DNA from: Catajapyx aquilonaris
Taxonomy: Eukaryota
Length of the DNA: 27,303 nt
Assembly: GCA_000934665.2 (NCBI GenBank)
Contig: JYFJ02000290.1
Location: 124,001-151,303, forward strand
Direction: 5' to 3'
A program made the translations under genes and the position numbers. How positions within the stretch are numbered: position 1 is the first letter of the stretch; every line of letters starts with the position of its first letter. The notes under the pieces were generated by a model that did not search any database, was not told the origin of the DNA, and worked only from the letters and a program-made list of their open reading frames with translations. Positions 7 through 25,929 of the stretch are shown one piece after another.

Positions 7-3000
7 TCAATCAGTGTAATCCATTGTCTTGATGAACTCAACGGCTGAGCAGAATTGAGTCCACCAGTACTGCTCCTCTCCGGTCATGCGCGATCCGTAG
101 AAGTTGTTCACGTACTGAACCGTCGAGAGCAGCGACGGTGGATTCGCCTGGAAATAACCGGAATCAGTACGAGCGACCAGAATCGTTAGGAATCTTACTT
201 TGATTAGGACGAAGACGAGAACAGGTATGATGTCGTCTGCGGCTGCGGAGGATCCCGATTTGTCGAACGCCAACGAGAGAAGGTTGACGATTGTGGCCGA
301 GCATCTCAGGACGCAGCGGACTTTGTCTCGTGGCATCTTGTAGGCGCTGATGGCCGCGATTTCCGCTTGAGCCGACGGCCAGGGACACTCGTAGTGGTAA
401 ACCTTTGGGATCCGCAAGTCCTTGTGGTTCACGCTGATCACTGTGGACAGCTTCTTCACATGCTCGTGCAGCACCCTGCGGCACAAGTAAATTAGGATAA
501 CGTTGTGGCGCATTTGCAGCGGAACTTACTGGTCTCGGGAGATGTCCCCGTCTCCGTTTGGATACAGAGCGTGCAGGTACACCTGGCTCATCACGGCTTG
601 TTCCACGGCCAGTTGGGCCATCTGCTGCTGCCCGGGACATCCCTGCCATATGGGATCGCGGGACAGCTGCTCCCCCATGGCCTGCAGGAACCTTTCGACC
701 AAATCGGTCTTCTCGTCAGAAGCCGTCAGCCGCTGAAACTCCTGTCCCAACGCTTGAAGCTGGCCTTCCCTGCCCTCCAGGAAGATCCGGACGCAGACGG
801 ACACCAGGAATCGCCCGCACATGGAACGATCCTGCTCGAGCCGCTCGGTCAGCCGCTCCAGGTGATGTAACGTGGACAGCAGGCCCTGGCGGGATCGGAC
901 CAAGTACGCGACGTACGGAGTGCGCCGGCGGTACTCCTCCCGCATTGAGCGGAACAACCGGCAGCATCCTTCGTCGTCGAACAGCATGACGCATCGTAGT
1001 GTCTCGTGCAATTGGGACGTCAGATGCCGATCCTGCAGGTTGATAGCTTCAGCTAGTTGCAGGCGGAGTAGGCGCAACAGCGGATTGTCGCCTCCTTGTA
1101 ACGCCAAGCTTCCAAGTCCGGTCAGATTATGCAGGTCCGTCCCGCTCAGTACGAGCCGCAGCTTGCGCTTTGCATCCGAGAAAGCGTAGGAAGTGTCGCT
1201 CAGCATGTCTGCGTTCAACATCGCAGCGTCTTCCTCCGCCTTGACTGTTGCGTCCGACTCGACTGCTGACTCGGGCGCCGTCGTTACGTCCTCGGCAGCA
1301 CTTACTTTGCACCTGTGATAAACATTCGTTATTCGTGCACCATCAGTAAACACAGTGATACGCACCTATATTTTGCAAGGATGTCGTCGGAACTTTCAAC
1401 CGGGTGCGCATCCTCCGAGAGTGACTTTCGGAGCCTCGGGTGCTCCTCGGGTCGTAAAAGGTCGCTCCCTCCGCCCCACCCGACGTAGCTCTTCACGCGT
1501 TCCTCCTGCTGTTGGCCCCGCAGCATCTTACGTCGCCCTTTGAAAGGTAGCTTGAAGCTTCGGAGGAATCCGCGGCGGTGCTTCCCGCCCTCCTCCTCCA
1601 CGCTGTCCCAGTCGCCACGTTCGGCCGTCTTGTCGAAACTGATGCTCTTTGGGATTGCGCCGCTCGATGCGGACGGTACATCGTCTGCGTTAGTCTGGAC
1701 CTTGACAGGCCCGTTTTGCAGTCCGTCCCCGTCACCCTCGTGCTTCGACCTCCGTCCGTACGACACTGTCGTTGGGCTGGCTGGAACTGGTCCGTCCTCT
1801 TCTGAGCTGGTGCGTCCCGGCTGATGGTGGTGGTGGTGGTGCCTGTGCCGGTGGTGGTGATGCGGTTGAGGATGAAGCTGCCCCGGTATCGTATCCAAAG
1901 TCGGGAGTGAACCAGTCGCAACCACAGGAACAGGCTTTAGGGTCTGGGCTTTCGGGTAACTCTCGATGCTGCGTGGGCTGTCCGGCGGCAGTGAATCCAT
2001 TGCGACTGTAAACAAACTCGTAAGTGCTCACTCGCTGAGGGTAAAAGCCAGCGATTTACCTAGCCGTTGAAGGCTGGCGGAACTGTCCCGTCTGCTGCTA
2101 GTCCCACTGAGGCAGCTATCAACCTCGTCTAGCGATGTCCGCTCGTCCAGCCGCCGTTCGGGGCTACGTGGCAGGAGCGCGCCTCCGTCAATTCGCAAGG
2201 GAGGCGGCGGGAGGCCACGTGCGCCCGGATTCTCCTCCCGAATTGGGCGGAACAAGCTTCCAGACACTGCAACGAATGTGTTAAAACAAGTGCGAGTCAC
2301 ACAGAGATGAAACGTACCATTGGGCCTGAGGGTTCCGTCGTCGCTTCCGTCAACAGCGACGTCCGATCTGAGTGAATACTCAACGGATGGAACTTCGACT
2401 TCAACTTCGGACCTGGCCGTGTCGTCCGACCTTGCGACGCTGCTTGTGTCGTCCGTGTCCACTTCGCCCAACCTGTCCGAGTCCGATGCTACGACGTCCA
2501 TGCTCCAAGCTTCCGAAGCCGTTTCCGATATGTCCAGCAAGTTCCCAGAGGCGCCGGTCCCAGTTCCGCCGTCAGACAGCTGCCGTCCGGTCGTCAGTAT
2601 GTCAGCTCCTGGCGGATGTTCCGCTCTGTCCTGCTGCTCCAGGGTCTCGCTGTCACTCGCAAGAACGTCGGTGGACCAAGTGTCGCTCACCATGGACACC
2701 GTCTCGTCCCCTTCAATCAGCGGCTTGATCTCAAAGCGGCCAAACTTGTCCTCGATGTCGGATCGCGACTGCTGCTTGTGGCGGTCACGTGAGACTGGAA
2801 GGTCTTCTAGGGAAGCCGCACGTGGACTAGGGGCCGTCCTGAGGGGAGCCCTGGGGTCGTCCTGCCCTTTGTCAGCCGCTGCTCCTTGTTCGCCCTCGCC
2901 TTCAGTCACCTACAGCCAGATGAATTATTATAATATGTAATTTACAAGCATGTAACGAGTAACCATACCTGCGACGATGGCGTGTCTCGACCGGACACGT

Positions 3001-5184
3001 TGGGCGAACCGCGTCCGGACACGTTTGCTGAGACCATATCGGACAGATTGTCCACCTGATCCTCATTCTCAAGCTCCAACGACGACGCGACGCTGTGATT
3101 AGACGCAGCTTCCGACACGGCCTCCAGATTATCCGACGTGTTTCCGATCGAGCCTTCGTCGTGTGAAAGCGAGAACCGTGTCCGCTTCTCCGTCGTTTCT
3201 CCGACGACTCCGCCACCACCGGCTGACGATGTGACGACACTTGCGACGCTCGCTTCCCCTTCTTCAAGAGGCTGCGAGGACGTCGCGGAATGGGACTGGT
3301 GGTGATGGTTGCTCAGATTCATCCGAACCCGGTTCTTCCCCTGCGCTTGAACCAGCGACAGAACCTTTTGCTCCGACATCATCCCGACGCATTCGGCTCT
3401 GGCGTTTGGAAAGGAGATGACCAACACCGGCTCCATTCTGCCGGAAGCGTCGTCCTGTCGTCTCGTATCGGCCACATCCTCGGATGAGTCGTGAGGTGGA
3501 CGATTGCGACTCCGGCTCACTGTAAAGTGCGATAAGTAAGTTCATTGCTGCGTTACAGTGCGGACGACTGACCTTTGCTTAGGAGGCTCCGTTTCGGCGT
3601 GTCCGGAATCTCATCGCCGCCGTTGAGCAATTGCGGGGACGCATTTGGCGGAGTACTGTTGTGATTCTGAGCAGGTGGAGTAAACGTGGGCGAGAAGAGC
3701 GCAGGCGGAGTCGCAGGAAGCGGCGCCAGTATAGCCATCAGTGCCTTTGCCACCTCGTGCAACGGTGGACAGGAGCTGTCCTTGTTGTTGTTGTCCGTCG
3801 CCTCAGTTGAATCCAGATGCTGCGAGACGGACCGCAGATAGCAGATCAACTGTTGAAGATCAGTCTCCGTAGCAAGTGCGGCTGAACGGGTCAATCGAGC
3901 GGCGGACGATGCGGATGATTCGCACAGTGGCGGATCCTCCTCCAGGTGGCCGTCCAGCATCGAGTCCACAAACGACGTGAGGCATTCCTGCAATTGCTGT
4001 AATTAGTAAAAGTGTAACATTGCTAAACGAGACATACCTTGTCGAAGTTCCCATACAGGTCGTCCTTCAAGTCAAAGTCGCCCATCGCAAGAACCTGCAA
4101 GATCTGCGCCACTTGCATTAGGTTGAAGCGTGCGACCGGCCCAATCGGGACGTCCACAATTCCATGCGGCTCAGGGTTGACCACAGCCGGACACACGAAT
4201 AGCGAGAAGACCAAGTCGCTAGCGACCGCCCTGACCTCCTGGTCGCCACCGCCGGTCGCTAGTGCAACCTGCTGAACCAGCCACGCCAGATGGGCCGGAA
4301 AACAGTGCGTGTACGACCGTAAGCTGTCGACAAACCGGCGGGTTAGGCCAACGAGCCTATTGACAGTCAGGTCACGGTATGCCCTAAGCCGCTCGGGATA
4401 CTCCGGCGAATCCTCCGACCCGATATGCCTAGCCCGTTCGTCCGCAGTAAGCCGGAACGCACCGCGGTTCACGTCCGGATCCAAGAACGTCTGGTCCTCC
4501 TGCAGCAAGTGCATTATGGGCTCGTGTAACGCGGCGGTTAGGAACAAACGTGCGGCGAAGGATCCTTCGCTGAACGCACGGTACAGGCGGCTAAAAGCGC
4601 AGTTGCCCCGCTTTAGGATTAAGCGAGGTCGATCTGCTGTACGTAGCTGCGATTCGACTAGGAAGCGGAGTAATCGCAGCGCCAGTACTTCGTCTTCTGG
4701 TAGTACGCAGTAGCCGTACAGCGTACCGAGCACGGTGTTGATTACAGACTGGCTGCTTTCCAGTGTCAGCTTGTCGCCCAGGGTCAGACATGACGCCAGC
4801 AGCTTCGGGTTGTCTCGTAGCGACTGAAGGAACTCGCCGTATATCGACTCCTGAAAGTACGGCCGGTTACGACATGTATCGCAAGTACGAGCGGGTACGT
4901 ACCTGTATGCCCAATTGCTTGTAGCCGTCGACGAACGTGGCTTGATCTAATGCGGCGGCTCGTTGGCAGCACGACTGCGGGCTGCAGTCGGGTCGGGCCA
5001 CCACCAGCGAGTCCAGGTTCGCCCTCTGCTGACCCGTGACCCAAGCCAAATGGAAGAGCCTCTCTGCACCTTTCATCACTCGCTCGTTAAGCGACTGGAG
5101 CTGCTCCCTCTCCGCGCTAACGAAGAACTTCTCCTGCCGAAGCTGCTGGGCCAGCTCCGTCACCTCACGCTGAAGCCCGTCCAT
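7..5184 (-). CDS. GAPVD1: GTPase-activating protein and VPS9 domain-containing protein 1 (GAPex-5/RME-6), RasGAP-like plus VPS9 domains, 10 coding exons, ~1566 aa
   Basis: Exons (minus): 5184-4903, 4850-4038, 3987-3573, 3519-2969, 2909-2318, 2266-2060, 2005-1366, 1312-530, 475-199, 147-7. All introns are GT-AG (50-59 nt) with consistent phases; total 4701 nt. Motifs match GAPVD1 as recalled: [42 protein letters not shown] (RasGAP-like), [38 protein letters not shown], and VPS9 [45 protein letters not shown]. Confidence 0.96.
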
Positions 5185-5306
5185 CGCAGGTCAAAGGTCA
5201 CACTACAAATCAGGCAAACGTCCAGCGCTGTACGCACATCTGTAATGGACATGATTAAGCAATGGTGTAGGTAGACCCAACAATAATGACTGGTGTCATT
5301 AATGCA

Positions 5307-5620
5307 ATTATTTCAAGGGTCATACTGTGTGTGACTTGTCGTACGTAGTGTACTTAGTGTTGACATACATCCGAATTGTCCGATACGCACTGATGGTCTT
5401 ATTTGTCAAGTACCACGTCACTTATTATTTATTATTAGGGTGCAGTATGACCCTCACACTAATTACAAGGGTCATACTGCAAGTTGATGTATAATAAATC
5501 ATAAGTGTCGGTGAGTCGTACTTAACGAATAAGATGATCAGTACGTACATGTGTAGCGGACGAGTACGATGTATGTCGACACTAAGTACGCTACACGCAC
5601 AGTATGACTCCTTGAACTAA
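5307..5620. mobile_element. Foldback/MITE-like element with ~55-65-bp imperfect inverted ends, just upstream of GAPVD1
   Basis: 5307-5372 (ttcaagggtcatactgtg..gtacttagtgttgacatacatc) is an imperfect reverse complement of ~5568-5620 (gatgtatgtcgacactaagtacg..cacagtatgactccttgaa). An internal hairpin cagtatgaccct..agggtcatactg lies at 5443-5479. No clear TSD seen. Confidence 0.6.
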
Positions 5621-6788
5621 CCCGCGTTAATTACACTAATTGCGGTACTTACAAAGGGAAGGTCATGCTGCCAAGTGTATGACCAACCTTTTTTTTTTAC
5701 ATCAGCATAGAACGCAGCCTGACCTTTTCTCGACCCCCTCCGATTCTACGACCACATCTTCTTGGGGGGGGGCAGAAAAGACTTTGACCTCGCTGACCCC
5801 TGCAGAACGGCTCAAGTTCCAAAATTAAAAATTAGGGGGAAGGAAAAATAATAATAATTAAAGAACAACACAAAAAATAATATACGCAGAGAAGTCTGGA
5901 GATTCGAACGGGGACTACTCCCTGTGCTGCCGCCCACCCGAGCTTGGACACCCACTTCCCCCAGTTCTGATATCGAAATAATTAGTGTAGCATCTATATT
6001 TAGACATTTTAATTTTAAAGAAATATCGGAGCATGACTTTAATAGGCGATAACTTGCATTTTTTCTGCTCCCAGTTAATGTGCACAGGTATGGGGCTGGC
6101 GAGAGACGGGCAGCGCCACAGGGGAATGAGCGGCATGCCCTTGTACTACCTTTTCTTTTGGATACAGTACCTTGAGAATACGGTGCTTCCCAAATCTTTT
6201 ACAGTTGGCGACAGACACCCCACTTCAAATACAATCCCTTCGCAAAAAATCTCTAAAGGAAAATCTAAAGGTGCGCTAGCGAGGTATGGTTGCCAACCTG
6301 TGCGGTAATAGTGGGGGGGCATACGGTTTTTTTTACACCTTTGTACACAGTAGTGTATGGTAATGACATGTACAGTACTCTGTAAAATCGCTTTCATGTA
6401 CTGAAAATAAGATGAAACAAAAAAAATAAAAATAAATTGGATATAAAAAATTATTTCCGACGTGTGTATATAGGAGGAGCCCATATTTTCTTTCAATTTA
6501 AAATATACACCCAACTTATAGAAAACACAATATCATAGAAATTATTTATTTTAAACAGCTTTTTACAGTATTTTACAACGACGATTTTTCAATGCAATCC
6601 ACATTTTACATATTTTACAAAGAGTTATGGCCACTGACTTATTATGCAGCAAATCAAATGGCTCATGGGAATAATGGGTGGGTCATGGTCAGCCTGAAAG
6701 GAGATGATAACACACATATTAGACGTGATGGCCCATGCTTGAATGTATTATTTATGTGTGGCACACTATTCAAAGCTTCATTTTACCG

Positions 6789-9442
6789 TCAGTATTGAGG
6801 TGCCGCAAATTTGAGGAGAGTTGCTCCAGTTTCTCCACATAGGCGCCTCATGATATCCAGTTGTGCCTGAGTGAGAGGCAGGAAAGTATGTCAAAATTAA
6901 CAGGGATTATGTGATTCCATCATTTCTTAACAAGATCCCAATGCATGCCAAGTACTATAATATGAAATTGACACAATGGGGCCTTCCAGACGGGCCGACC
7001 TTAGCCGCGGCTGGTCGAGGCCGCGACGGTTCACACGGCAACGGCCACGGCTCAGAAGTCGGCCAAGTTGGCCGACTTCCTGGAAGTTGGCTCGCTGCTT
7101 GGCCACGGCTTGGCCTTGGCGACGGATACTGCGCGTCACTTGTTTTTCGTCGCTGCCATGACTACCGGCCACTATTACTAATAAATTAAATATGTGCCCG
7201 TCTGAACGGGTACCGTGGCCAGCCGTGGCTCCGCAAGCCGGTGCCGGGGCCGGTGCCGGTGCCTGCCGCGGCTAAGGTCGGCCCGTCTGGAAGGCCCCAT
7301 TGACAAACATACCTTCAGTGCCTTGTTTTCTGATAGAAGAGTGACGCAATCATTGCTCTCTTTGGCTAACTCCTCATTCTTTTTGCTGCAAGAGATTGAT
7401 TTAAAACCAGCTCCTGCTGTAAGAGTGGAACCGTTACGAACCTCAACTGCTCCATGAGGCTATCCATGGTTGGTTCCACAGTGTAAGTTCTCCTGCATTC
7501 CTGCAGCGACTGATGCTCTGAAGAGGAGTTGATCATAAGCATGTTTTTACAAATTTATCTCTTACCATCTGATACCTTTAGGCACTTGAATGAATTTAAT
7601 ATACCTAACATTATTGGGAAAACAGCAAGATATTGTGCATTCCTGCTGAATTTTACACTACAGTCAGATGTACAGGGTGTTCCAGATTCGTGGGTCACTT
7701 TTTGATAACTGATGTAGCGCAATGGCAGTTGTTGTTTTTTTTTTGCAGCTTGTTGTGCATCTAACTGTGTGCTCCATTCTATAGCACCTGCTATATTCGA
7801 CCCCCAGTGGGATATCAGTTCATCAAACAGTGACCCACGAATCTGGAACACCCAGTATTTGCCATTAAGCCGTTTATTACTAAGTTACGTTAAGGTGCAT
7901 TTACATGTCAGCGATTTGACGAGCGAAGTCATCACAGAGGCTGAAATTGACAATCGATTTTCGCCTCGAACAATATTGGTTACTTGGGTCACATAGCCTA
8001 GCCGAAGATTTCGCTCCCTCATCAAATCGCTCACATGTAAACATGCCACGCTAACTTACAGGTAGATGATAATTATCAAAGGCATTTGTTGTAGGTCTCT
8101 GGCTGAAAGGAAGCATCCCTTTACTGATTAAATTCCATTATCAAGATTTTGCCACTGCAAATGACCCACGTAGAACATCTGCTGTGTGGCAATCACACGC
8201 TGTATATCCCAATTGTATGGCAGCAAGGTATGAGTGTGAATGAGCACACCCAAGGTCACAGTGACGTATCTGCCTCCTAAGTATATTCATTGTATATCAT
8301 TGTGACTCCTTTGCTCTAATTACACATGTAGCTCCTGCATTACACCTTCTAAAATTGCACCTCATGTACTTAACATACCAGGTGGCTTTTCTTCATTAGG
8401 TGATGGAGCTAGAGCAACCCTGATGGTGGCTGGGCCCACCTTCGCCTTTTTGGTGGTTGGCTGCAAAACATAGCGTGAAGTTGCTTTGGATGCAGCAGGT
8501 CGGGTCCGGTTATCCAATCCCAATGGCGACACATAGTTCTTGTTGCCACTTTTGGAGACCGTTGCGCCAACCTTAGTAGGCCCAGAAGGCACTGCCAAGG
8601 AAAAACATGTAATCAAATTGTTCTCGCATTACACAACATTGCATGTTTCAAGACATGCTGGTATTTCACTCATGATAATTATGCAAAGGGGAAAAATTCC
8701 TCGTTGATTTTTTATTTATTTATTTATTATACTGCAGGTTCCACTACTAGCCTTCTCTCTCATTTTGAGGTTGGGTCAGCAAAAAGTCACATTATGGAAG
8801 CAGACAGGATGAAAGTGTTTTCAACATCCAGCATTGACTTTTGGAAGAGGAAGGTCAGAAAGCCTTGTCCTCTGTCCAATTAATGGATGGATTAGCCCTT
8901 ATTGCTGAATGGTGGATCCTAAGACTACAGCAGTGTTTACATGTGAGCAATTTGGAGAGCGAAGTGTTCGCCGAACGATAACATCGCTGAGTAACCGATA
9001 TTGTTCGAGGTGAAAGTAACATTTTGGCATCAAATACTGGTTACTTGGGTTATCCAGCGATATTATCGCTCCGCGAAGAGTTTGCTCGTCAAATCACTCA
9101 CATGTAAAGGCGGCTTAAATCAAGTGCCAATACCCCCCCATGTGAGTGGGTGGCATTATGGAGCCCCTCGAACCCAAAAATGTAAAAATCAATTCACCCA
9201 ACTACCGCATCTCCCTCACCAGCATATGGTCTGCCTCTCTGCAGATTCCGCCCACTCAGCAAGTCATTGACGCTCATGGAGCGCTTCCTCAGCCCCCTTA
9301 TGTGAGGCACAGCCGATGTTGCTGCTGGGTTCCTGGTCAGCTTTATACTATACTTTCCAGTTAAGGGCATGCGATGACTCTTCATCCCGGATGCTGCTGT
9401 TGGCGTGACCGACACCTTGGGCTCCTCCTCGTCATCTGCCAT
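6789..9442 (-). CDS. Uncharacterised 233-aa protein: basic, low-complexity N-terminal region plus C-terminal coiled coil; candidate cell-cycle protein
   Basis: Exons (minus): 9442-9220, 8591-8379, 7604-7566, 7517-7442, 7385-7313, 6866-6789. All six join through GT-AG sites in consistent phase (702 nt, ATG to TGA). Two introns are 48 and 56 nt, like those of neighbouring genes, and the three long introns each contain MITEs. AATAAA on minus near 6546-6551. Translation: MADDEEEPK..RKRSMSVNDLL..KKAKV..MEQLSKKNEELAKESNDCVTLLSENKALKAQLDIMRRL..PQY*. Confidence 0.75.
6978..7298. mobile_element. MITE with perfect 34-bp TIRs and AT target-site duplication (ISL2EU/PHIS-like non-autonomous element)
   Basis: ggggccttccagacgggccgaccttagccgcggc at 6978-7011 and its exact reverse complement ending at 7298. 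Flanked by AT on both sides (6976-6977, 7299-7300); the empty site would read caattg. Superfamily inferred only from the AT TSD and GG termini. Confidence 0.88.
7673..7855. mobile_element. Tc1/mariner-type MITE (183 bp, TA TSD)
   Basis: ta|cagggtgttccagattcgtgggtcact ... agtgacccacgaatctggaacacccag|ta: 27-bp TIR with one mismatch and TA on both flanks. Confidence 0.88.
7894..8048. mobile_element. Short MITE (PIF/Harbinger-like), copy 1
   Basis: Inverted ends tttacatgtcagcgatttga / tcaaatcgctcacatgtaaa; shares ends and the internal tggttacttggg with the copy at 8929-9116. Confidence 0.7.
8929..9116. mobile_element. Short MITE (PIF/Harbinger-like), copy 2
   Basis: Inverted ends tttacatgtgagcaatttg / caaatcactcacatgtaaa, followed by taa; same family as 7894-8048. 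Confidence 0.7.
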
Positions 9443-9711
9443 CACCTGGTTAAAGGCACACGATGCATCAGCAACCCTGCATTTTTGATTAGCCTGTGCC
9501 TCAGCAATCACCTTACCGGCCAACTGTGGGGTATCTGATGTGGCAATAAGCCTAACGTCTGTCGCCTTGACCACCGACGGCGTGTGCAGCAGGCCTGCTT
9601 CGACACTGCCCCTGACTTCGACGACCGCAATGCACCAGGGTAGGCAGAAGAAGCACCAAAATGGACAGTCTCTTCCCTAGAGACTCTCCAACCAGACACC
9701 AACGGTCACTT

Positions 9712-9786
9712 TTCAAATCCACCGCTTTTTATAATGGAAAGGAGTATCGATATTTACACAAACATCGATAGTGAGAAGTATCGATG
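9712..9786 (-). promoter_or_regulatory. Promoter cluster: three DRE sites, TATA-like box and CDE-N4-CHR, between the divergent 233-aa gene and DNase II
   Basis: TATCGATA at 9745-9752, CATCGATA at 9763-9770, TATCGATG at 9779-9786. The minus strand reads TATAAAAAGCGG-TGGA-TTTGAA (9733 to 9712). Confidence 0.6.
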
Positions 9787-9804: not shown

Positions 9805-9845
9805 TAAATTATTATTATTATTATTATTACTATAATTATATTATA
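9805..9845. repeat. Imperfect (ATT)n microsatellite
   Basis: attattattattattattac..attattat tract. Confidence 0.7.
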
Positions 9846-10094: not shown

Positions 10095-11347
10095 ATGAAG
10101 TGTACGCTGCTGGTACTTGCATTGTACTTGGCGTACGTAGCAAGTCTGAGCTGTAAGGACGAAGCAGGAAGCGACGTGGACTGGTTCGTTTATAATATTA
10201 CATGATTATACACGTAATAATACATGGTGTAATACAATGCAGGTTCGTCGTGTATAAAGCGCCTCGTGAACTCAACCCGTCAGGTACGGTGTACTACTTC
10301 ACGACATCCGCATCCGACACGTACAACCTGACCCTGTCGAAGTCCGCCATAACCGACTCGCACTCGATAGTCGGACGGACACTACAGCCGCTTTGGAGCA
10401 ATGAAACGGTATGTACACAGCTTCGTACATTGCTACGTACCGGTTCTCACATATTACTTGCAGCTGCTGTACTTGCTGTACAACGACCAGGCACCGGAAA
10501 GGAAAACGTCATTTGCGCATGGTCATGCGAAAGGCGTGGTACTCTTCGATTCCAAAGCTGGAGTTTGGCTCGTACATAGCGTACCGCACTTCTTGAACTT
10601 CACGCAGGATGGGTACCAGTATCCGCACTCGGGACGGATGAACGGGCAGGCTTTTCTGTGCGTTACATTCCCAGCAGATGCGGCTGACTTGATAGGTATG
10701 GTTTCCAGTTTGTGTGTGGTACACTCTGACTTGTCACGTAACTATTGCAGGTCGCCAGTTGCTGTACATCAACCCGTATGTGTACCAGTTCAACATCCCA
10801 CCGTCAGTGAAGGATAACGTGCCCAATCTGGTCGGGGTGGCTCACAACAAGACGGTGACCCAGTCGCCGTGGATTCTCCGGACTGAACTGCGGTCGTCCG
10901 GTGGCGTTACATTCGTATCGTATGCTAAGTACCACAAGTACGCGCACGACCTGTACTCAAGCTGGTTGGCACCATCGCTCAACACGAGCTTGTACGTCCA
11001 AAGTTGGCCGAATGGCGCGAATCCTCTCCCATCAGACTGTAACGAGCCGCAGTAAGTCGTACTGTTCGTTGAATGTATGTACATATTAATGTCCGTGAAC
11101 TTGCAGCGTGATGAACGTGGAGTACGTGCAGCTTCCATTTGCACAACCGTACTCCAGCCGTGTCGACCACTCCAAGTGGGCCGTTTCAGCTTCCAGTGCG
11201 TCTCCGTGGTTATGCGTGGGTGATCTGAACCGCATGAAGCCGCAGGAACGCAGAAGCGGCGGAACCGTCTGCATGCAACAAAAGTCACCCTGGGCCGCAT
11301 TTGCTTCCGTCGTAGCCATGTTGCAAGCATGTCCAGCGCACTTATAA
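10095..11347 (+). CDS. DNASE2: Deoxyribonuclease II family protein (DNase II/plancitoxin-like), signal peptide, 342 aa, 5 exons
   Basis: Exons 10095-10183, 10243-10408, 10464-10695, 10751-11051, 11107-11347 (1029 nt); GT-AG introns of 59, 55, 55 and 55 nt. Signal-like MKCTLLVLALYLAYVAS; LSCKDEAGSDVDWFVVYKAP; YNDQ; both PLD-type HxK motifs (GHAKG, DHSKW); WLVHSVP; CVGDLNRMKPQERRSGGTVC. AATAAA at 11510. Confidence 0.95.
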
Positions 11348-11683
11348 GCTACCGTTACCTGAAAAATGAAGTGCCCAAACAATACATCACGAGTAAGACC
11401 TCCGTGGCTGCATGAAAGTACTGACACAATGCAAGTACGACCTTCACCAATTATTTTCATTCCGCCACGGACCTATTTTTTTTATATTCAACATAATGTG
11501 TTCTTATGAAATAAATTTTTTGTACTCACCTTCAACCGTATCGTCTCACCAGTACTTGACCTGCAAGGAGTCATGCACATTTTGGTTGAAGCAAACGCGC
11601 TTTAATAACCTTCCAGTTGCTTTATTTGGGACGTATTGCGTTCAACCCTCTTCGATTTAAGGCTTCGCTTGCAATTTGCGAGG

Positions 11684-13701: not shown

Positions 13702-14342
13702 TTATTGCCACATCCCACATGGTGTGCTCTTATGGCATCTCGAGTTACAGAGTACGTTTTTCTGGAAGCAACCACATCTAGCAGTTCGGCATCGTACCTT
13801 TGACAGCTGGCACATACACTTCCTGAACCCTTGTCCCCCCGAAAACGCAACCACTGCCTCCCTGACTGACAAAGTCTTATACTGACGCACATCATCAAGG
13901 GTCACAAACTGCACCAGGGTCTTGCGCAGGTCCTCTTCCCTATATACTGCCAGCCGTTGATTACACAGCGCAAAAAAAAAAGATTATAATTCGGCGTGTT
14001 ACTCGGAAACCACTATGTACTGTACATCATGTTAACCAAAGTAGCTGGGAAACGCCCGGGATTTCTCTCCTAAAATGTGCAGGGGGTCAGGGTGCCGACA
14101 CTCCATGATTTGGTCTTGTGGTCGTGCAACCAAGCCCGCAGCATCTTCTCCACGTCTTGATTGCTCCTCTCCACGCTCCCCTGTGTCTGGGGGTGTCTTG
14201 GCCTGCCATATGAACAATGATGCATTCTGGCCACATTGTACGCAGTTCCTCGATGACGTGATTCACAAATTCCCGTCCGTTATCGCTCTGTAGGATGACT
14301 AGGAGCTGAGGAGCTCCAAACACCAGGAAGATGTCACTCATG
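13702..14342 (-). mobile_element. Degenerate KRBA2/SCAND3-like (rve integrase, Ginger/GIN-type) transposase fragments
   Basis: 14342-14095 reads DIFLVFGAP..ILQSDNGREFVNHVIEEL..WPECIIVH, then after a 2-nt frameshift GRPRHPQTQGSVERSNQDVEKMLRAW (second D and E of the DDE triad). 13914-13702 encodes the Cys-rich tail SVREAV..GGQGFRKCMC..CRTARCGCFQKNVLCNSRCH. Internally deleted. Confidence 0.88.
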
Positions 14343-14985
14343 GATGACCTTAGCGACCCAGAAACCTCCTGAAACCACATCTCACATACGATATGTAGGG
14401 TAAAACACGCCAATAAGTTGTAATTAGGCTATATAGGAAATGGTGTAATCTCGGACCCATCTTGTTTTTGGGATACAAGGACCCAAAATCCAGAGTGCTA
14501 ACAGCGATTTTCGAAATCAGCATGGTCGAATTAATCTAAAAAGGCTCGTTAGCAGCTTGTTTCCAATTCTGCTTCTAACCATCAGAAGGAGACACGTTTT
14601 TTTTTCAGATTTTTTTCCTATAGACTGGTTGGCTGGTGTGACTGCCCCCCGCGCGCTTGCTGTGTGAACACTACTGTTGAGCAATTTCTGCATAAATTAG
14701 TAGTTTACCTGACATGAGTCCACGTCAGCAGATCTATTGCTGCTCCCGGAATTCGAGGCGTGCCGGAGTTTTTTTTTTTTGCGGCAAGAAGACAAGGTCA
14801 CAGCTGGCTTCTTCTTGGCGCAAAAAAGAAAACAATGCTCTGGGCGTTCCACCAGTGTCACGGTTGGGAGGGTCAGTCAACTTGGTTACATCACAACTCT
14901 CTTTAACAGAAACCTTGATCATTATTGGGCTAATAATAATTATAATAGGGATAAATTAAAGAGAGCGATAAATGGGGGTTAGATT
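14339..14985. repeat. Duplicated block, homologous to 19341-20050; its first ~250 bp is an inverted copy of repeat E
   Basis: Shared anchors agggtaaaacacgccaataagttgtaatta, cttctaaccatcagaaggagacacg, ctctttaacagaaaccttgatcattattgggctaat, ttagattaat. Confidence 0.85.
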
Positions 14986-16039
14986 AATCTCCTGCCTACG
15001 GGAACCTTCGGTTTTATTTGGCAGGAAAAACCTCCAGACATAGATTTACAGGTGAATAATCATCTGTTCAGTACAGGAAGTCCGATAAAAATTTACGTTG
15101 GGTACAGTACGACCAAATACAGAGACAACAGAGTGTCTGAGCGGGAAGTCCCATTTTTTAAAGTAGATCCTGCCTGCGACCGACTAATATTTCTTGGAAT
15201 ACTGACCGGAAATGGTCGCGACATTATCAGTCGGAGAAAGGAGCTGGTGTGAAGCCCCTTTTGGCGCGCGTTTGGTATGCGTTGCATATTTCTAGCGCCC
15301 CATAATCCACCAATCTTTTTAGGGGTCTTTTACACGAGGACATACAAGTACAAGCGGTTGATACAACCGTGCCGTGGGGTCTTTTAGGACCTCACGCCAT
15401 ATTTTAATTTTTATTAATTTTTATATAATATACTTTTCAATGTATTGACTATAATTATACAATCATTCTTTGAACAATGCCTAGAATGATCGCTAACTCA
15501 AAATAAACATGCTCTTCCTGGAGCCTATCCGTCCTCTTCCTCCACTGAGGATTACGATTTTGAACTACGTGAGACAGCTGAAGGAGGGGAGGAGGAGGAA
15601 GAATGTGCCGCAGTCAAGACACATATTACGATAACCTCTATAGAAGAGTGTGCCAGCTCAATCCAGAGATTTGCCACTGTCCCTGATGAGGCTTTGCCTG
15701 TGTTGCTTGAAGATTGGGGCGAACCTCCTGATGATCAGGATGAGTGGGAGAAGAGGCGGGAGAGGAGAACCAGGGCAGACCTGGGGTTGGATGGAGAAGA
15801 CAGAACAGAGCTCAAGTAGAACGTGTGCAAAGTGAACCGCATTGGCCAGTGGATCCCAGCGCTGCTAGCTGCTTCCCATTCAAGCTTGCATTGCTTCAGA
15901 AGAGCTCATCACAGTCGGAGGTGTCTCGTGCCTGCAGGAAAACCTCTGGATTTCAGACCCAAGTTTGACCAGGTCACAGGTAAGCAATGACCAGTTGTTC
16001 AGCCTTATTATAGTCCTTGAGAAAAATCAGTATTCCGCG

Positions 16040-16580: not shown

Positions 16581-17104
16581 ACTTCTGTAGATTGGCGGCG
16601 GCCGGCGATCCCATCCATTCCCACCAGCCCGCCTGATTGAGAAAGGCTTCTCCAAGTCGGAGGTGTAAACTCTCGTGTCTACACAAGCCTCCGCATTTTT
16701 CACCAATTCCAGCAGAAGTACTGACCAAGGCCAATGGCCATGCAGCAGGTAAGAAATCATCTGTTCAGCGACCCCGATGATTACGAAATTAGCAATCTGG
16801 ATATTTGGGCCCTTGTGCCCCCAAAACAAGGTGCCGTCCAAGATAGATTCATTTCCCATTCAGACGAAGAAGAAAAAAACGGTCATACAGCAAATTTCCG
16901 GATGGGTTTGTCGCGACATCTTATACACAAAACGAAGGCCGTACCGGTGTAGTATTTTGACACACTGACAATAATTGAGCGTTCGGCTTTGTTCAGGACA
17001 CCCCCCCCCCCCCATCCCTCGTAAAAAAAAGAGCGCCCAGTCAGATATGGAAGCAACGAATATTTGCATCCTTGCACTATTGGGTAACCTCGGTCAGGTC
17101 ACTC

Positions 17105-17105
<1 letters not shown>

Positions 17106-17186
<81 letters not shown>
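17106..17186. repeat. Perfect (AAT)27 microsatellite
   Basis: 81-nt uninterrupted AAT run; it explains the poly-I and poly-Y ORFs in the track. Confidence 0.97.
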
Positions 17187-17187
<1 letters not shown>

Positions 17188-17242
17188 GATAACAATGTTT
17201 CCCCCTCTTCTCTCCCTATAGACTCCAGAGCGCAATCCAATG

Positions 17243-20050: not shown

Positions 20051-20880
20051 TATAGAGGTTGGTGTACTGTACTGCAACCTAGCCAACGAACCCAGCACTA
20101 TGTAATAATTGTGAGGTAGGACGTGATGTCAATGCCAATAATTTGTATTCCCCGCCCACTTCCGTGCGGACTTGACCTTCATATACCTGGGCCAATTGCA
20201 AAGGGGCTGAGATAGGAATGAAGGAAGGAATGCTCGCAGGCTAATTTATGCAGAGAAGGTGTATATAGATGGCGCGATTCTCTTTGCCCTCCACCCCCTC
20301 CCCGCCCCTCGCCCTTTCATTGGGGGTGGATTCATAATAATTACTCCCGTCGCATACATTACAATGATTACATCATTAGCAGCAACAATGCAACTGACTG
20401 AATTCCGTACCAATGGAAATGAAAAATAAAGGCAGTGCAGCATCCTCCAAGGAATGGGTATCACACATGTGAGTTGCTTTTCGATGCGTCTAAACCGTCT
20501 AGAAGTCGTGGTTCCCATGCAAACTTTTTTCGGGTCGCGACCCTCTATGATAGTCAAGTAACCTGCGAGCCTCAGCCCCCGGAGTATTAGTAGAAGATTA
20601 ATGTAGTGCAGACATATTAAAACATGGTTTTAAAAAACGTTCGTTGTGAAATTTCCTATAAAATTGAAAGTGAAAGTCACCGCGGCCACCGCGCGACTCC
20701 CCCGGAAGAGGCTTCGTGACCATACACCCCCCCCCCCCCCCCCCCCCCCCCACNTTCCATGAACAGTTTCGGCAGGACAAAGCCTCCTGGATTTTAGACC
20801 TTCAAACGGAAGCCTTCAGTCAGGTGATCTTTCAGCTATAGTCACCATATAAGTGTTAGTCGTGCAAAACCAGTTGTTCT

Positions 20881-21190: not shown

Positions 21191-23765
21191 ACCGCGTTCC
21201 TGAATAAGTTGCGTCTAGCAATATTTTTCGAATCCTTGAAACCATCGATGCCAAGTTTTTAATGGTATTTTCATATCCTAGCACGACATGCGAGTTTAGA
21301 ATACTCCGCACGTATGCACACAATATGTAATGTCATAATTATCATGTCATATTCCAATAACGCAATATTCTGTAATAATAGTCTACAGACTATTATTATA
21401 TACTCGTACATAAATATAGATATTTATTCGACAGCATAATGAGAGACTCCGCATAAAGCCCACGAGACAATGTTGCTTAATTTGTTGATATGTTGTAAAT
21501 AATGTTACCGTAGCTGAGAAAGCGTACCCAAATATCCGACGGGTTTCTAATATCGGATACACGCGTATTCTCTGCTCAACAATGAAAATCTGCCACATCG
21601 AAATGGGGAAGTAACCTTCATTTTGGAAACTACATAATAAAATCGCCCATATTTTTTGGATTTTTTTGGCATATTCCGTTTTACGATATCAGTTTCAGTT
21701 CCGGAGAAAGTAACAATAGCAACAACTGAGCCCTGATTTCAGTTTGCAACAAGTCACATTTCAACAAAGAAATTAAATGCTGTAGTGTCCCCTGATCCCA
21801 CGGCGCGTCAGGAACACCTCGCTAATAACTGGCCCCGGACAGCTCTTATAAACAGTTATATTCTCCACAATAGGTAAACACCTCTGTTCTATTACACAGT
21901 CAGTGAAAGACTAATCGTTCCAAACAGTCAAACATATCAACACTGCAGCTCCCAGCATAACAACGGTTTCCAATAAGTAATCCTCCTGACAACAATACAG
22001 TTCTGTTGCCAGGACTCGAACCACTACAATACTATGCTGTCTCCTGCCTTTTATGCAGACGCTCTCATTATATACTGCGGAATAAATATATCATTACTTT
22101 ACGTTATTATTGGGATTATTGGGTGCCACGCAGCAAGCAGCAGCCGTATACACCACGCAGAAGAATAATATTCTCAAGGTAAGCCCAGGGTATGCGGAGG
22201 CTAACACAGCCGACGAATCCGCCTCCAACTACGTGTACTAACTGTATAATAACACTGGGGAACAAATTTTTGGTTGCATTGATACCAGCACTACTTGTTC
22301 TTACCTAATTTGAATGTGCTGAATCCAAATACGATTTTAGTTTTTCTCTGTAAGCTCCAGAAGTCTAGATTTTCTACAATTCATTTTTTTTTTTGGTTGC
22401 GACATTTTGACTCCTGTCGCATGATGACATGATCTCTCCGAGGAATTTATGGTCATACAGTCTTGAAATTAGGCTTAAACAACCGTCTTGGTAAAGATAT
22501 ATTCTTTTTCATTCACAAAAAAGTCGTAGGTCCATCACAATATGCATTAAAGTCTGAAAAAAGTCAAAAAATATCGGAAAAGTATGTCCCAATTTTTAAA
22601 TCCTGTAACTTGTAGACCTATCTTCATGATATAAGTTTTGAAATGCTAAGAAATGTCAAACGTTTTGGGATCACCTTAGTTTGTTTCGATATGAGCTCCA
22701 TTTGTCGCTAGGCAAATGTAGATTAATAGTAATCGGCGTCGTGCCTAACCCACTCAGACATGTCTTGCGTTACCGTTGCTCTCTTTTCCCTGTTTATTAC
22801 CCCTGTGTTTAAAATCTGTTTGACATGTGGTATATGAATGGCCAAATTCGCTTTAACTCTATAATTTTCATCGGAGGAACAGAGAAATGTGTGTTTTCCT
22901 TTGTCTGCGTGATATTATTTTTCATTTGGTTACACAGTTACAAATTTCACGACTTTATGTTTCATCATGTACTTTCTACTGTAGTCGTTCATAAAATGCC
23001 ACGTGTTCTAGGGGGATGTATTTAGCCTCTCCGTGGGTGTTTCGGCCAACTCACTTTAACTTCAGGATATTTAGTATCAATCGTTGTCATAAAACAATGT
23101 CACATTGCCGGATTGCGCAATCTGCAGTGAGACTGCACGAATAAGGGAGGGAACACAGGACAATGCATTGCGTACATGTTCGTCGTGAAAAGCACTCCCA
23201 ATGCAACACCTGTCATGAATAATCCGCCATGTCCACTTACATTTGAGCCTTGCCGTTTTCAACACTCGTTGAAACTCAAGAACAGGTGTCAGGGGAATTA
23301 TTTAAAACGCTAAGGACCCTGATGCAAATCGATCAATTGGTATTAAACTGCAACAATCATGTCGCAATCTGTAATTCATTTTATTTGCACAAAAGGAACC
23401 ATGACAGACCCCTGCGTAGCGACACACAATGTGAATAAGGTCGGACACTTTCAGCAGTTGATGTGATGTGCAAGTAATTTCCCCATCCTTACATATATGC
23501 ACTCTCATTTGCATATTGCGATACTGTTAATTCATCAAGTCGATCGCAGGACTTATTCGAAAAGTTCCCACTGAAACACCCTCTATTTTTAGGACCAATT
23601 CAAAATTACGTACGCAATGCAACGATTGGCAAATTTATCAATCATTTTGCAACTAGGCAAATGCGACAAGAGAGTCCATTGACACCTACCCCCAATGTAG
23701 GCCCATGTCACTAATTTCCAGGTGCGTAGTTGACCCATGTGCATATTTTCTCCTTTTCAGAAGCC

Positions 23766-24029
23766 ATGTCTAGGGACAAGGTGCGACGCAACTTGTTCGG
23801 GCCGGTCAACCACGAGGAAGTGTCCGAGATCTTGAGTGCCCAAATGATGGACATCAGCGATGAGGCTAGAGCGCGGGCTATAGAGAAGTATAACTTCGAC
23901 ATCCTGACTGAGACTCCGTTGGATGGGCCGTTCGAGTGGGTGATGGTGACGGCGACCCCTGAGGCTGACCCCTGGGGAGGAAGAGGCCAGGCGGCCTTCA
24001 GGATGAGAAGGCGGCCGCGGCCGGAGTAG
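23766..24029 (+). CDS. Cip/Kip-family cyclin-dependent kinase inhibitor (p21/p27/Dacapo-like), 87 aa
   Basis: Strong acceptor ttttctccttttcag ending at 23760, then gccATG. MSRDKVRRNLFGPVNHEEV..ARAIEKYNFDILTETPLDGPFEWVMV matches the CDI domain as recalled (p27 RNLFGPVDHEEL..KWNFDF..PLEGKYEW; p21 RWNFDFVTETPLEG). Basic tail RMRRRPRPE. Candidate 5'UTR donor AAG|GTAAGC at 22179. Confidence 0.88.
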   Translation: MSRDKVRRNLFGPVNHEEVSEILSAQMMDISDEARARAIEKYNFDILTETPLDGPFEWVMVTATPEADPWGGRGQAAFRMRRRPRPE

Positions 24030-24559
24030 TATACCGTTGTAGTAATTTTTTAAAACGCTTTACAGATCTGGAAATGCACACTGCACCAAAGTATCCAGTG
24101 AGATAGGTGCTAGTGAATGTTAACTCTAGTCGGGAGGAAATGTGAAGGAGTGCTGTGAAGTAACTGGTTGGTTGTGTGCATAAAAGATCGTACATATGCT
24201 TTCATGCTTTTAATTTCATGTTGACACACCTTACCCATTTTTTTACAGGAGCTCCGTAAGTAACACTCCACGTAATGTAGAGGATATGCATTTTATAGAA
24301 TCGATGCCAATAAGTTGCACCACAGCAGAATGGCGATGATTTATCCTTATTATTTCTTGCCATTTTCATATTCGAGCACGACATACGAGTGTAAAATAAT
24401 AATCAATGGAGTAACAGACGTATGAACTCATTATGTTAGACATGCCATATTAGCCCAATAATGTAATACAGCAGAATAATGAACGAGTATGTATAAAGAA
24501 CATGAGGTAATGCTCCTTAATTCCTTGATACAGTTATGTTGCAAATGGCTAATTCCACG

Positions 24560-25929
24560 CGTGACTTACACGACATGACATTCACATCAGTTCATGCCTA
24601 TATCTTTAGCATGTAAGGAAATGGTGTTTAATCATAACTAAGCAGTAAGTATCTATGTGATAATTAATGGTTTCATTTTTTACAGCTACACATTTCAGTT
24701 ATATAAATATAAAAACTTTATAAATGAATTCGTGACTTACACGACATGAAAGCCATCATTGGTAACAGAGGCTTCAGATGTAAACGTAAATTTCTTTCCA
24801 TTTATAACCTAAATGTCACTGTTTTTTAGGCGAGTACATTTCCAAAGACCCAATAATTTCTTTTGTGGCCTACACGACAATTTTTTTTAAATGTTACTTA
24901 CACGGCGACACTTGTGTCCTGATTGCTTTCTGATTCGATTTATGAGATTTTTATTATTATTTGTAGGACAGAAAGAAAGTAATCTCTGTTACATGTTCTT
25001 TTAATAAAACATTTAAATGATATGCCAACATGAGAAAGTCCAGGGCTTTTGAACATATCTAAGGCCGTCAAATTACCCATCTGCTGGGATGAATTAGCGG
25101 TATACCGGAAGCTTGTGGTGTACAATGTCTTTAATAAGTCTAGTGAAAAATGAACACTGATTTTTAAAACTCGAAATAGGAAAATTTGGAAATAACAGAA
25201 TGCTCTAGTTCATAATCCCCAAGTGTATTAAAATAATTAGATTTTCTTAGTCAGGAAAATAAACAACTTCTTTTCCACATTTCATCAAGCGTAGCTATTC
25301 TTCTTTCAATATCTCTTGATCCGATGAATGTAATTATTACATATGATAAACTGTACAGGCAACTTCTGCAAATTCTTCATCTGTGTTTGAATCAAACTGT
25401 CTGGCATTGATGGTTTCTCAAACTCGTCATTTTGCCTCTTCAAGGCTTCTCTCTCATCAAAAGTAACTGCTTTTAAAAAATTACACCTTTCCTTTTGCCT
25501 AACCCTGTAATGCCCACTGGGTCATATTTGGCACACACCTTAGTGCAATTTTTGCAATTTTTGCAATTTTTATATTTCCTGTAAGTGCCAAATTGCTCTA
25601 AATGGTGTGCCAGATATGACCCAAGGGGCATTACAGGGTTAAATGCACTTATTTTGAACAGTTCTTACACTTATCTTCCTGCTTTTTCTTCTTTTCTGCT
25701 ACTGTAAGTGCTACTTTAACTACTGGCAAACATTAGTGACAGTGGCACCTAAGCGTAAACGTGACTTACACGACAAAAATTAAACGGCTATAACAATGTT
25801 CCGACCAAAATCACCCAAATATTCTTTATTATTTGACGGGTACTACTGTGTAATGAGAAGGTAATTAATAACAACTATTAGATTTTTAAATTACATATAA
25901 GGAATTGAAAAATCGTGACTTACACGACA
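24560..25929 (+). repeat. Dispersed 16-bp motif CGTGACTTACACGACA (4 exact and 2 degenerate copies), probably transposon subterminal repeats
   Basis: Exact at 24560, 24731, 25760 and 25914; degenerate at 24864 and 24892; all in the same orientation. Confidence 0.75.
25503..25638. mobile_element. piggyBac-type MITE (136 bp)
   Basis: ctaa|ccctgtaatgccc..tgggtcatat.tggcacac ... gtgtgccagatatgaccca..gggcattacaggg|ttaa: CCC/GGG termini with a TTAA-like TSD (left copy has one mismatch). Confidence 0.85.

Follow-up and report, generated by a model that had tools for sequence, protein, structure and literature searches.

In Catajapyx aquilonaris, does the interval that separates a GAPVD1-like gene from a DNase II gene carry, on its minus strand, a further, spliced protein-coding gene, and, if so, what kind of protein would it specify? 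The locus lies in a stretch of 27,303 nucleotides (NCBI GenBank assembly GCA_000934665.2, contig JYFJ02000290.1, positions 124,001 to 151,303 of the forward strand), hereafter the window, which is numbered from its first letter and is eukaryotic in character, with short introns and many inverted-repeat elements. A preliminary description of the window, made from the letters alone, had proposed a six-exon gene at 6789..9442 for a protein of 233 amino acids (aa). The exon chain is beyond chance and statistically well supported, and we put the chance that the minus strand carries a real, small, spliced gene for a protein here at about three in four. The predicted product of 220-233 residues would, as far as its sequence can tell, be a basic and mostly disordered protein that ends in a zipper for dimerisation and carries a site of basophilic-kinase/14-3-3 type.

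Joined by coordinate, the six minus-strand exons yield 702 nucleotides (nt) and 233 aa without an internal stop, and all five introns, of 628, 774, 48, 56 and 446 nt, are of the GT-AG type, which bears out the in-frame chain with canonical sites that had been proposed. It had also been remarked that the list of open reading frames showed only unconnected fragments of this gene, and indeed the exons are listed there only as separate frames of 160, 88, 109, 62, 93 and 33 aa. The parts of the chain, and the elements at its 3' end, are these (a slash marks the exon border):

9220..9442, minus strand: coding exon 1, 223 nt, with the ATG at 9442, residues 1-74 and the donor CTG/gtgagg; it contains the acidic start, the basic region and the RKRSMS site.
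8379..8591, minus strand: coding exon 2, 213 nt, residues 75-145, rich in Ser, Thr, Pro and Lys, with KKAK and RVALAPSPN.
7566..7604, minus strand: coding exon 3, 39 nt, which is less certain than any other internal exon and may be skipped.
7442..7517, minus strand: coding exon 4, 76 nt, the start of the helical C-terminal part.
7313..7385, minus strand: coding exon 5, 73 nt; it encodes the core of the heptads, including NEELAKE and LLSENKAL.
6789..6866, minus strand: coding exon 6, 78 nt including the TGA, two further heptad turns.
6625..6693, minus strand: an alternative last exon or an exon of the 3' untranslated region (3'UTR), picked by the gene finder described below; acceptor tatcatctcctttcag/GCT.
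6545..6550, minus strand: AATAAA polyadenylation signal, about 240 nt past the stop codon.

Within a 3.3-kb region, the donors of exons 1-5 rank 7, 6, 3, 13 and 1 among 188 GT, and the acceptors of exons 2-6 rank 2, 16, 6, 10 and 3 among 202 AG. The region was also submitted to a gene finder, a custom exon-chain program that combines generic splice matrices with a codon table taken from the neighbouring genes only; as a positive control, it rebuilt nine GAPVD1 exons and part of DNase II, the first and last exons of which it missed. Left unaided on the minus strand from 9750 to 6450, the finder recovered exons 1-5 of the candidate, and its best model scores 54.9; the six-exon model for 233 aa scores 52.1, and the opposite strand of the same region 16.7. 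Dinucleotide shuffles (200 of them) reach a mean of 16.4 with a standard deviation of 5.9 and a maximum of 35.9, and none attains 52.1. Sixteen 3.3-kb tiles from other parts of the window were scored as well. Twelve of them are free of known genes and range from 7.7 to 34.6; the other four overlap the CDI locus (see below), and of these the two read on the plus strand score 46.5 and the two read on the minus strand 14.5 and 17.4. The scores of the known genes of the window are 46.5 for CDI, 51.3 for DNase II and 322.5 for GAPVD1. Two other placements of the third exon were tried and rejected: an exon at 8102-8060, beside a repeat, with a strong-looking tttcag acceptor and a gtaagt donor, is out of frame with exon 2, and a 59-nt exon at 8118-8060 is in frame, but has acceptors of -2.0 and -1.9 and brings the total to 39.4.

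Codon usage, scored with a table from GAPVD1 alone, gives the joined frame +41.9 bits, against -53.0 and -62.1 bits for the two shifted frames. Per codon, this is 0.18 bits, compared with 0.24 for the DNase II exons; among 74 open frames outside genes, each with 60 codons or more, 2 match the per-codon value, and none matches the total (maximum 18.3). The signal is carried by exon 1 (+14.3 in the model frame, versus -29.2 and -8.6), exon 4 (+10.0, versus -12.2 and -0.7) and exon 5 (+10.3, versus -14.1 and -8.9); exon 2 has a weak preference for the model frame (+2.2, versus -2.8 and -16.1), and exon 6 scores -5.3 in it.

What would such a gene encode? The 233-aa product has a computed mass of 25.4 kDa and an isoelectric point (pI) of 9.8, and its architecture agrees with the one given in the preliminary description. 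Residues 1-10 are acidic (five Asp or Glu). They are followed by a basic region, residues 11-145, which has 24 Lys and Arg versus four Asp and Glu, a pI of 11.6 and a combined Ser, Thr, Pro, Gly and Ala fraction of 0.49, and is probably disordered. The basic region includes RKRSMSVNDL at 52-61, the first six residues of which (52-57; RxRxxS, RSxS) are close to the mode-1 form of 14-3-3 sites; KKAK at 122-125; and RVALAPSPN at 132-140, a full RxxLxxxxN. The product has three RxxL in all and three S/T-P; KEN, PIP, SxIP and RVxF motifs were looked for in the 233 aa, and none was found. Heptads of a predicted leucine-zipper-like helix, about six in number, occupy approximately residues 175-218, between Pro174 and Gly219, with 13 of the 19 a and d positions hydrophobic in the best register; an Asn occupies one of the a positions, and the d positions, in a register assigned by hand, are L179, K186, E193, L200, L207 and M214. 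In the best window of 42 residues, 9 of the 12 a and d positions are hydrophobic, a value matched by 56 of 2000 shuffles. The product is without tryptophan, none of its six tyrosines is followed by Trp or Tyr, and its last 15 residues include one Lys.

The fuller reading of these features, to which we give a probability of roughly 0.6, is that of a spliced gene for a dimerising basic-tail protein. The C-terminal zipper would pair two chains, so that two basic tails would act together; the paired tails may engage a polyanionic partner, such as DNA or chromatin, RNA, or the surface of microtubules; and a basophilic kinase together with 14-3-3, acting at R-K-R-S-M-S, would switch that binding or the location of the protein. 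KKAK could act in nuclear import, and RVALAPSPN could be a destruction box (D-box) of the anaphase-promoting complex/cyclosome (APC/C). Functional labels that go beyond the architecture should be taken as guesses.

Database searches were made with single exons, as read unspliced from the window. Five single exons compared with Pfam gave only FANCL_d3, for exon 1, with E = 0.21, below the cut-off of that family. Exon 1 revealed no relative in a word-index protein search at near and at longer lengths; exon 2, run by HMMER against 1.84 billion representatives in a full scan made without a control, had 0 matches; the ESM Atlas gave no usable match to exons 1 and 2; and PDB sequences, queried with exons 1, 2, 4, 5 and 6, gave a single designed protein, with E = 0.69, which we attribute to chance. 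Rfam had 0 matches to the whole window. A 100-aa exon of DNase II, which scores 86.5 bits against Pfam, was used as a control, and it, too, was without a relative in the word-index search, so this search is blind to the kin of this organism; since the queries, moreover, were single exons, the blanks carry little weight and are no sign of novelty. The preliminary description had been unable to assign a family, and the outcome of our single-exon searches of Pfam, PDB, the ESM Atlas and protein libraries is the same. Likenesses to securin, PAWR/Par-4, HAUS8/Dgt4, TSC22, Swi5 and bZIP proteins amount to short stretches of coiled coil or motif, and are not claimed.

Upstream of the candidate ATG there is a compact group of promoter-type sites and a putative intron in the 5' untranslated region (5'UTR):

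9745..9786, no strand assigned: three ATCGAT (DRE/BEAF-type) sites within 41 bp, one of them a perfect TATCGATA.
9446..9516, minus strand: putative 5'UTR intron of the candidate, 66-71 nt, with the acceptor ttaaccag/GTG three bases before the ATG.

The sequence TATCGATA is the DNA-replication-related element (DRE), which is bound by DREF. According to PMC2475616, DREF activates genes related to proliferation; according to PMC12549938, BEAF binds close to the start sites of housekeeping genes. The cluster is about 300 bp upstream of the candidate ATG, and none of 300 dinucleotide shuffles of the window had three ATCGAT sites within 45 bp. The candidate and DNase II are divergent, with start codons about 650 bp apart (ATG at 9442 and at about 10095); the cluster is midway between the two and is probably a bidirectional promoter element common to both genes. 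The 5'UTR intron ahead of the candidate ATG appears likely from the sequence: its possible donors, CCG/gtaagg (exon end 9517) and AAG/gtgatt (exon end 9512), score 4.5 and 4.9 and rank 5 and 4 among the 188 GT, and its acceptor scores 1.5.

A number of points weigh against this account of the locus, beginning with the fact that all support for the candidate is drawn from the window sequence itself. The splice matrices are generic ones that have not been adjusted to Catajapyx aquilonaris, and the finder is crude, given that neither the first nor the last exon of DNase II was found by it. For the candidate, it preferred a last exon at 6693-6625 and added a spurious-looking exon at 7940-7905, which sits within an inverted-repeat element and was rejected; the acceptor at 6693 scores 7.1, the best of the region, and is unused in the six-exon model. 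If 6693-6625 is instead taken as a 3'UTR exon, it would follow a 93-nt intron from 6786, with the donor ACG/gtaaaa at 6787, which scores 1.4. Exon 3 (7604-7566), the 39-nt piece that makes the count of 233 aa work, is low in G+C (0.31), and its acceptor is weak, with a score of 1.3 and rank 16 among 202; its donor scores 5.1 (rank 3 of 188). A five-exon alternative without this exon stays in frame, with 220 aa and a score of 50.1. The donor of exon 4, GAG/gttcgt, is likewise weak (score 1.7). The two short introns of the candidate are in keeping with the eight introns of GAPVD1, which measure 50-59 nt: the 56-nt one is typical, and the 48-nt intron 3, shorter than all eight of them, is slightly short. 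By codon usage, exons 2, 3 and 6 favour the model frame weakly or not at all, and their G+C at third codon positions is 0.47, 0.33 and 0.35, compared with 0.66 in the training genes. The weak points of the model are thus exon 3, exon 6 and the total number of exons, and the C-terminus is provisional. As to the product, its motifs are short, with about one RxxL expected by chance at this size and RxxLxxxxN not rare; the heptad signal is modest (p of about 0.03); and the single-exon searches gave no family match in support of any function.

Several of these points would suit exons that do not code for protein, whether a chain that keeps frame by chance or real non-coding exons, of a long non-coding RNA or of alternative 5' ends of GAPVD1. 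The GAPVD1-like gene is directly downstream on the same strand, and has a splice acceptor at 5239, 55 nt before an ATG at 5184 that is presumably its start, judged by the N-termini of GAPVD1 proteins; with the acceptor just ahead of the ATG, an upstream non-coding exon is needed. The codon usage of exons 2, 3 and 6 is not clearly that of coding sequence, and no homologue was found in the single-exon searches. Yet a stop-free frame of 233 codons runs over five junctions that had been ranked regardless of frame, the codon score is strongly positive in that frame and strongly negative in the other two (-53 and -62), none of the 200 shuffles or of the 12 non-genic tiles comes near the score of the candidate, and the chain closes with a stop followed by AATAAA. 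As for GAPVD1, moderate donors at 5549-5724 on the minus strand, 300-500 nt further upstream of its acceptor, would provide it with a nearer first exon, and its transcript probably starts with a non-coding exon at its own promoter, which would be only about 1 kb away from the polyadenylation signal of the candidate. A non-coding or chance origin of the chain seems to us unlikely. If the gene is real, it may nonetheless be a divergent member of a named family, such as geminin, Chibby or another small coiled-coil regulator, and in that event there would be nothing new about it; we hold this to be possible, though doubtful. A small regulator of the cell cycle or of centrioles would be in keeping with its size, with the order of its features and with its DRE-type promoter, and a family could easily have been overlooked, because the queries were single exons and the word-index search missed its DNase II control. 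At the same time, the single-exon comparison with Pfam was blank beyond the one match at E = 0.21, and the two nearest models differ from the candidate in several ways. Geminin is described as having a D-box, a nuclear localization signal (NLS) and a parallel dimer of eight heptads, the first of which contains YWK, a motif that reads YYK in Drosophila and YWE in Anopheles (PMC4488664). The coil of geminin dimerises and binds Cdt1. The candidate resembles geminin in having an RxxLxxxxN of D-box-like form and a short, basic, NLS-like stretch, followed by a predicted coiled coil of parallel-dimer type, as well as in a size of about 200-230 aa and a promoter with a DNA-replication-related element; it differs in lacking the YWK, YYK or YWE motif and any Trp, in having about six heptads instead of eight, and in the place of the D-box-like motif, which is at residue 132 and not near the N-terminus. 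Nor does it have the acidic tail that geminin has past the coil. The earlier warning that likeness to the geminin coiled coil is generic finds support in the absence of the Y-W-K-type motif and of tryptophan, and it is our judgement that the predicted product should not be filed as geminin. Chibby (CBY1) has 126 aa in human, with a Ser20 that binds 14-3-3 when phosphorylated by Akt, a leucine zipper with Leu at four d positions and a C-terminal NLS after the coil, according to PMC2686680. An Akt-type RxRxxS/14-3-3-type site N-terminal to a C-terminal zipper is found in the candidate in the same order, a likeness of motif only; the candidate, however, has 233 aa and not 126, about 120 residues of basic sequence between the RxRxxS site and the coil, six heptads with Lys186 and Glu193 at d in place of four Leu, and no basic NLS past the coil.

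The preliminary description had further compared the basic region with the non-motor tail of the Drosophila kinesin-14 Ncd, and had suggested a motor-less microtubule protein of this kind or another lineage-specific mitotic protein. In the former, 14-3-3 bound at a phosphoserine would keep the basic region off microtubules, and Aurora B, acting on the serine two residues upstream, would release it. In Ncd, the Aurora B site S94 comes first and the 14-3-3 site S96 (RxxpS/pTxP) two residues later, and this pair is described as a switch for microtubule binding inside the microtubule-binding tail (PMC5626551); regulation of several microtubule-associated proteins by 14-3-3 is also on record (PMC9203013). 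The candidate, too, has a basic region, of pI 11.6, with an R-x-S-x-S in which the second serine is of 14-3-3 type and the first comes after basic residues, and its dimerising coil would pair two such tails. The analogy gains from the S-x-S spacing, S55 and S57 standing as S94 and S96 do, and it departs at position +2, where R-K-R-S55-M-S57-V-N has Asn instead of Pro. The likeness, moreover, extends over six residues, and motifs of this type are very common; beyond it, a sequence relationship is undetectable, the candidate has no motor, the single-exon searches gave no link to kinesin tails, and no microtubule motif, SxIP included, was seen in the product. An Ncd-tail-like protein is very improbable. 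It is also improbable that the gene specifies a lineage-restricted, previously unannotated cell-cycle protein, i.e., a DRE-driven dimeric basic-tail adaptor with a two-serine switch of 14-3-3/Aurora type and removal by APC/C via RVALAPSPN, which would be a functional analogue of geminin-like or Ncd-tail-like regulators while related to neither. The spliced gene for a dimerising basic-tail protein is the reading that we retain.

The candidate lies tail-to-head upstream of the GAPVD1-like gene and head-to-head with the DNase II gene. The GAPVD1-like gene is on the minus strand at about 7-5184, and matches the RasGAP (E = 1.9e-21) and VPS9 (E = 5.2e-25) families of Pfam. DNase II is on the plus strand from about 10095, with two exons that match Pfam at E = 1.3e-27 and 2.5e-24; at about 10095 it has a signal-peptide-like first exon (gene at 10095-11350 of the window, plus strand), and its introns are of about 53-55 nt. 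Further away, a cyclin-dependent kinase inhibitor gene with a CDI domain (p27/dacapo-type) matches Pfam at E = 4.3e-15 near 23764-23945; the five-exon model of the finder for it, at 23322-24749 on the plus strand, has 146 aa and scores 46.5.

The introns of the candidate contain four elements that resemble miniature inverted-repeat transposable elements (MITEs):

8929..9115, no strand assigned: inverted-repeat (MITE-like) element in intron 1, of the same family as the one at 7890-8043.
7890..8043, no strand assigned: inverted-repeat (MITE-like) element in intron 2.
7671..7857, no strand assigned: second inverted-repeat element of intron 2, with 36-nt arms that are 94% complementary.
6974..7302, no strand assigned: G+C-rich inverted-repeat element with 41-nt arms that are 98% complementary, making up most of intron 5.

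These short elements are of three kinds, and the two copies of the same family share TTTACATGTGAGC-type ends; the G+C of intron 5 is 0.57. All four elements are in introns 1, 2 and 5 and none is in an exon, which is by itself not significant. No second copy of the candidate exons was found in the window. Elsewhere, open frames of 93-113 aa at 13702-13983 and 14087-14428 (both minus strand) and at 15490-15819 (plus strand) have no Pfam family at E of 0.01 or below and may be remnants of a mobile element; the frame at 14087-14428 has a presumably integrase-like look. Long microsatellites of ATT/ATA type are found at 9806-9830 and at about 17090-17200, the second of which reads as about 37 Ile in one frame, and a single N is present in the sequence at position 20754.

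The present evidence on the candidate neither opens nor settles a larger question. If the gene is real, it would be another small, fast-evolving, disordered regulator that has been overlooked by annotation based on open reading frames and on homology, and its kinase/14-3-3 site, D-box-like motif, zipper and DRE-type promoter would make it a candidate proliferation-linked factor in this lineage.

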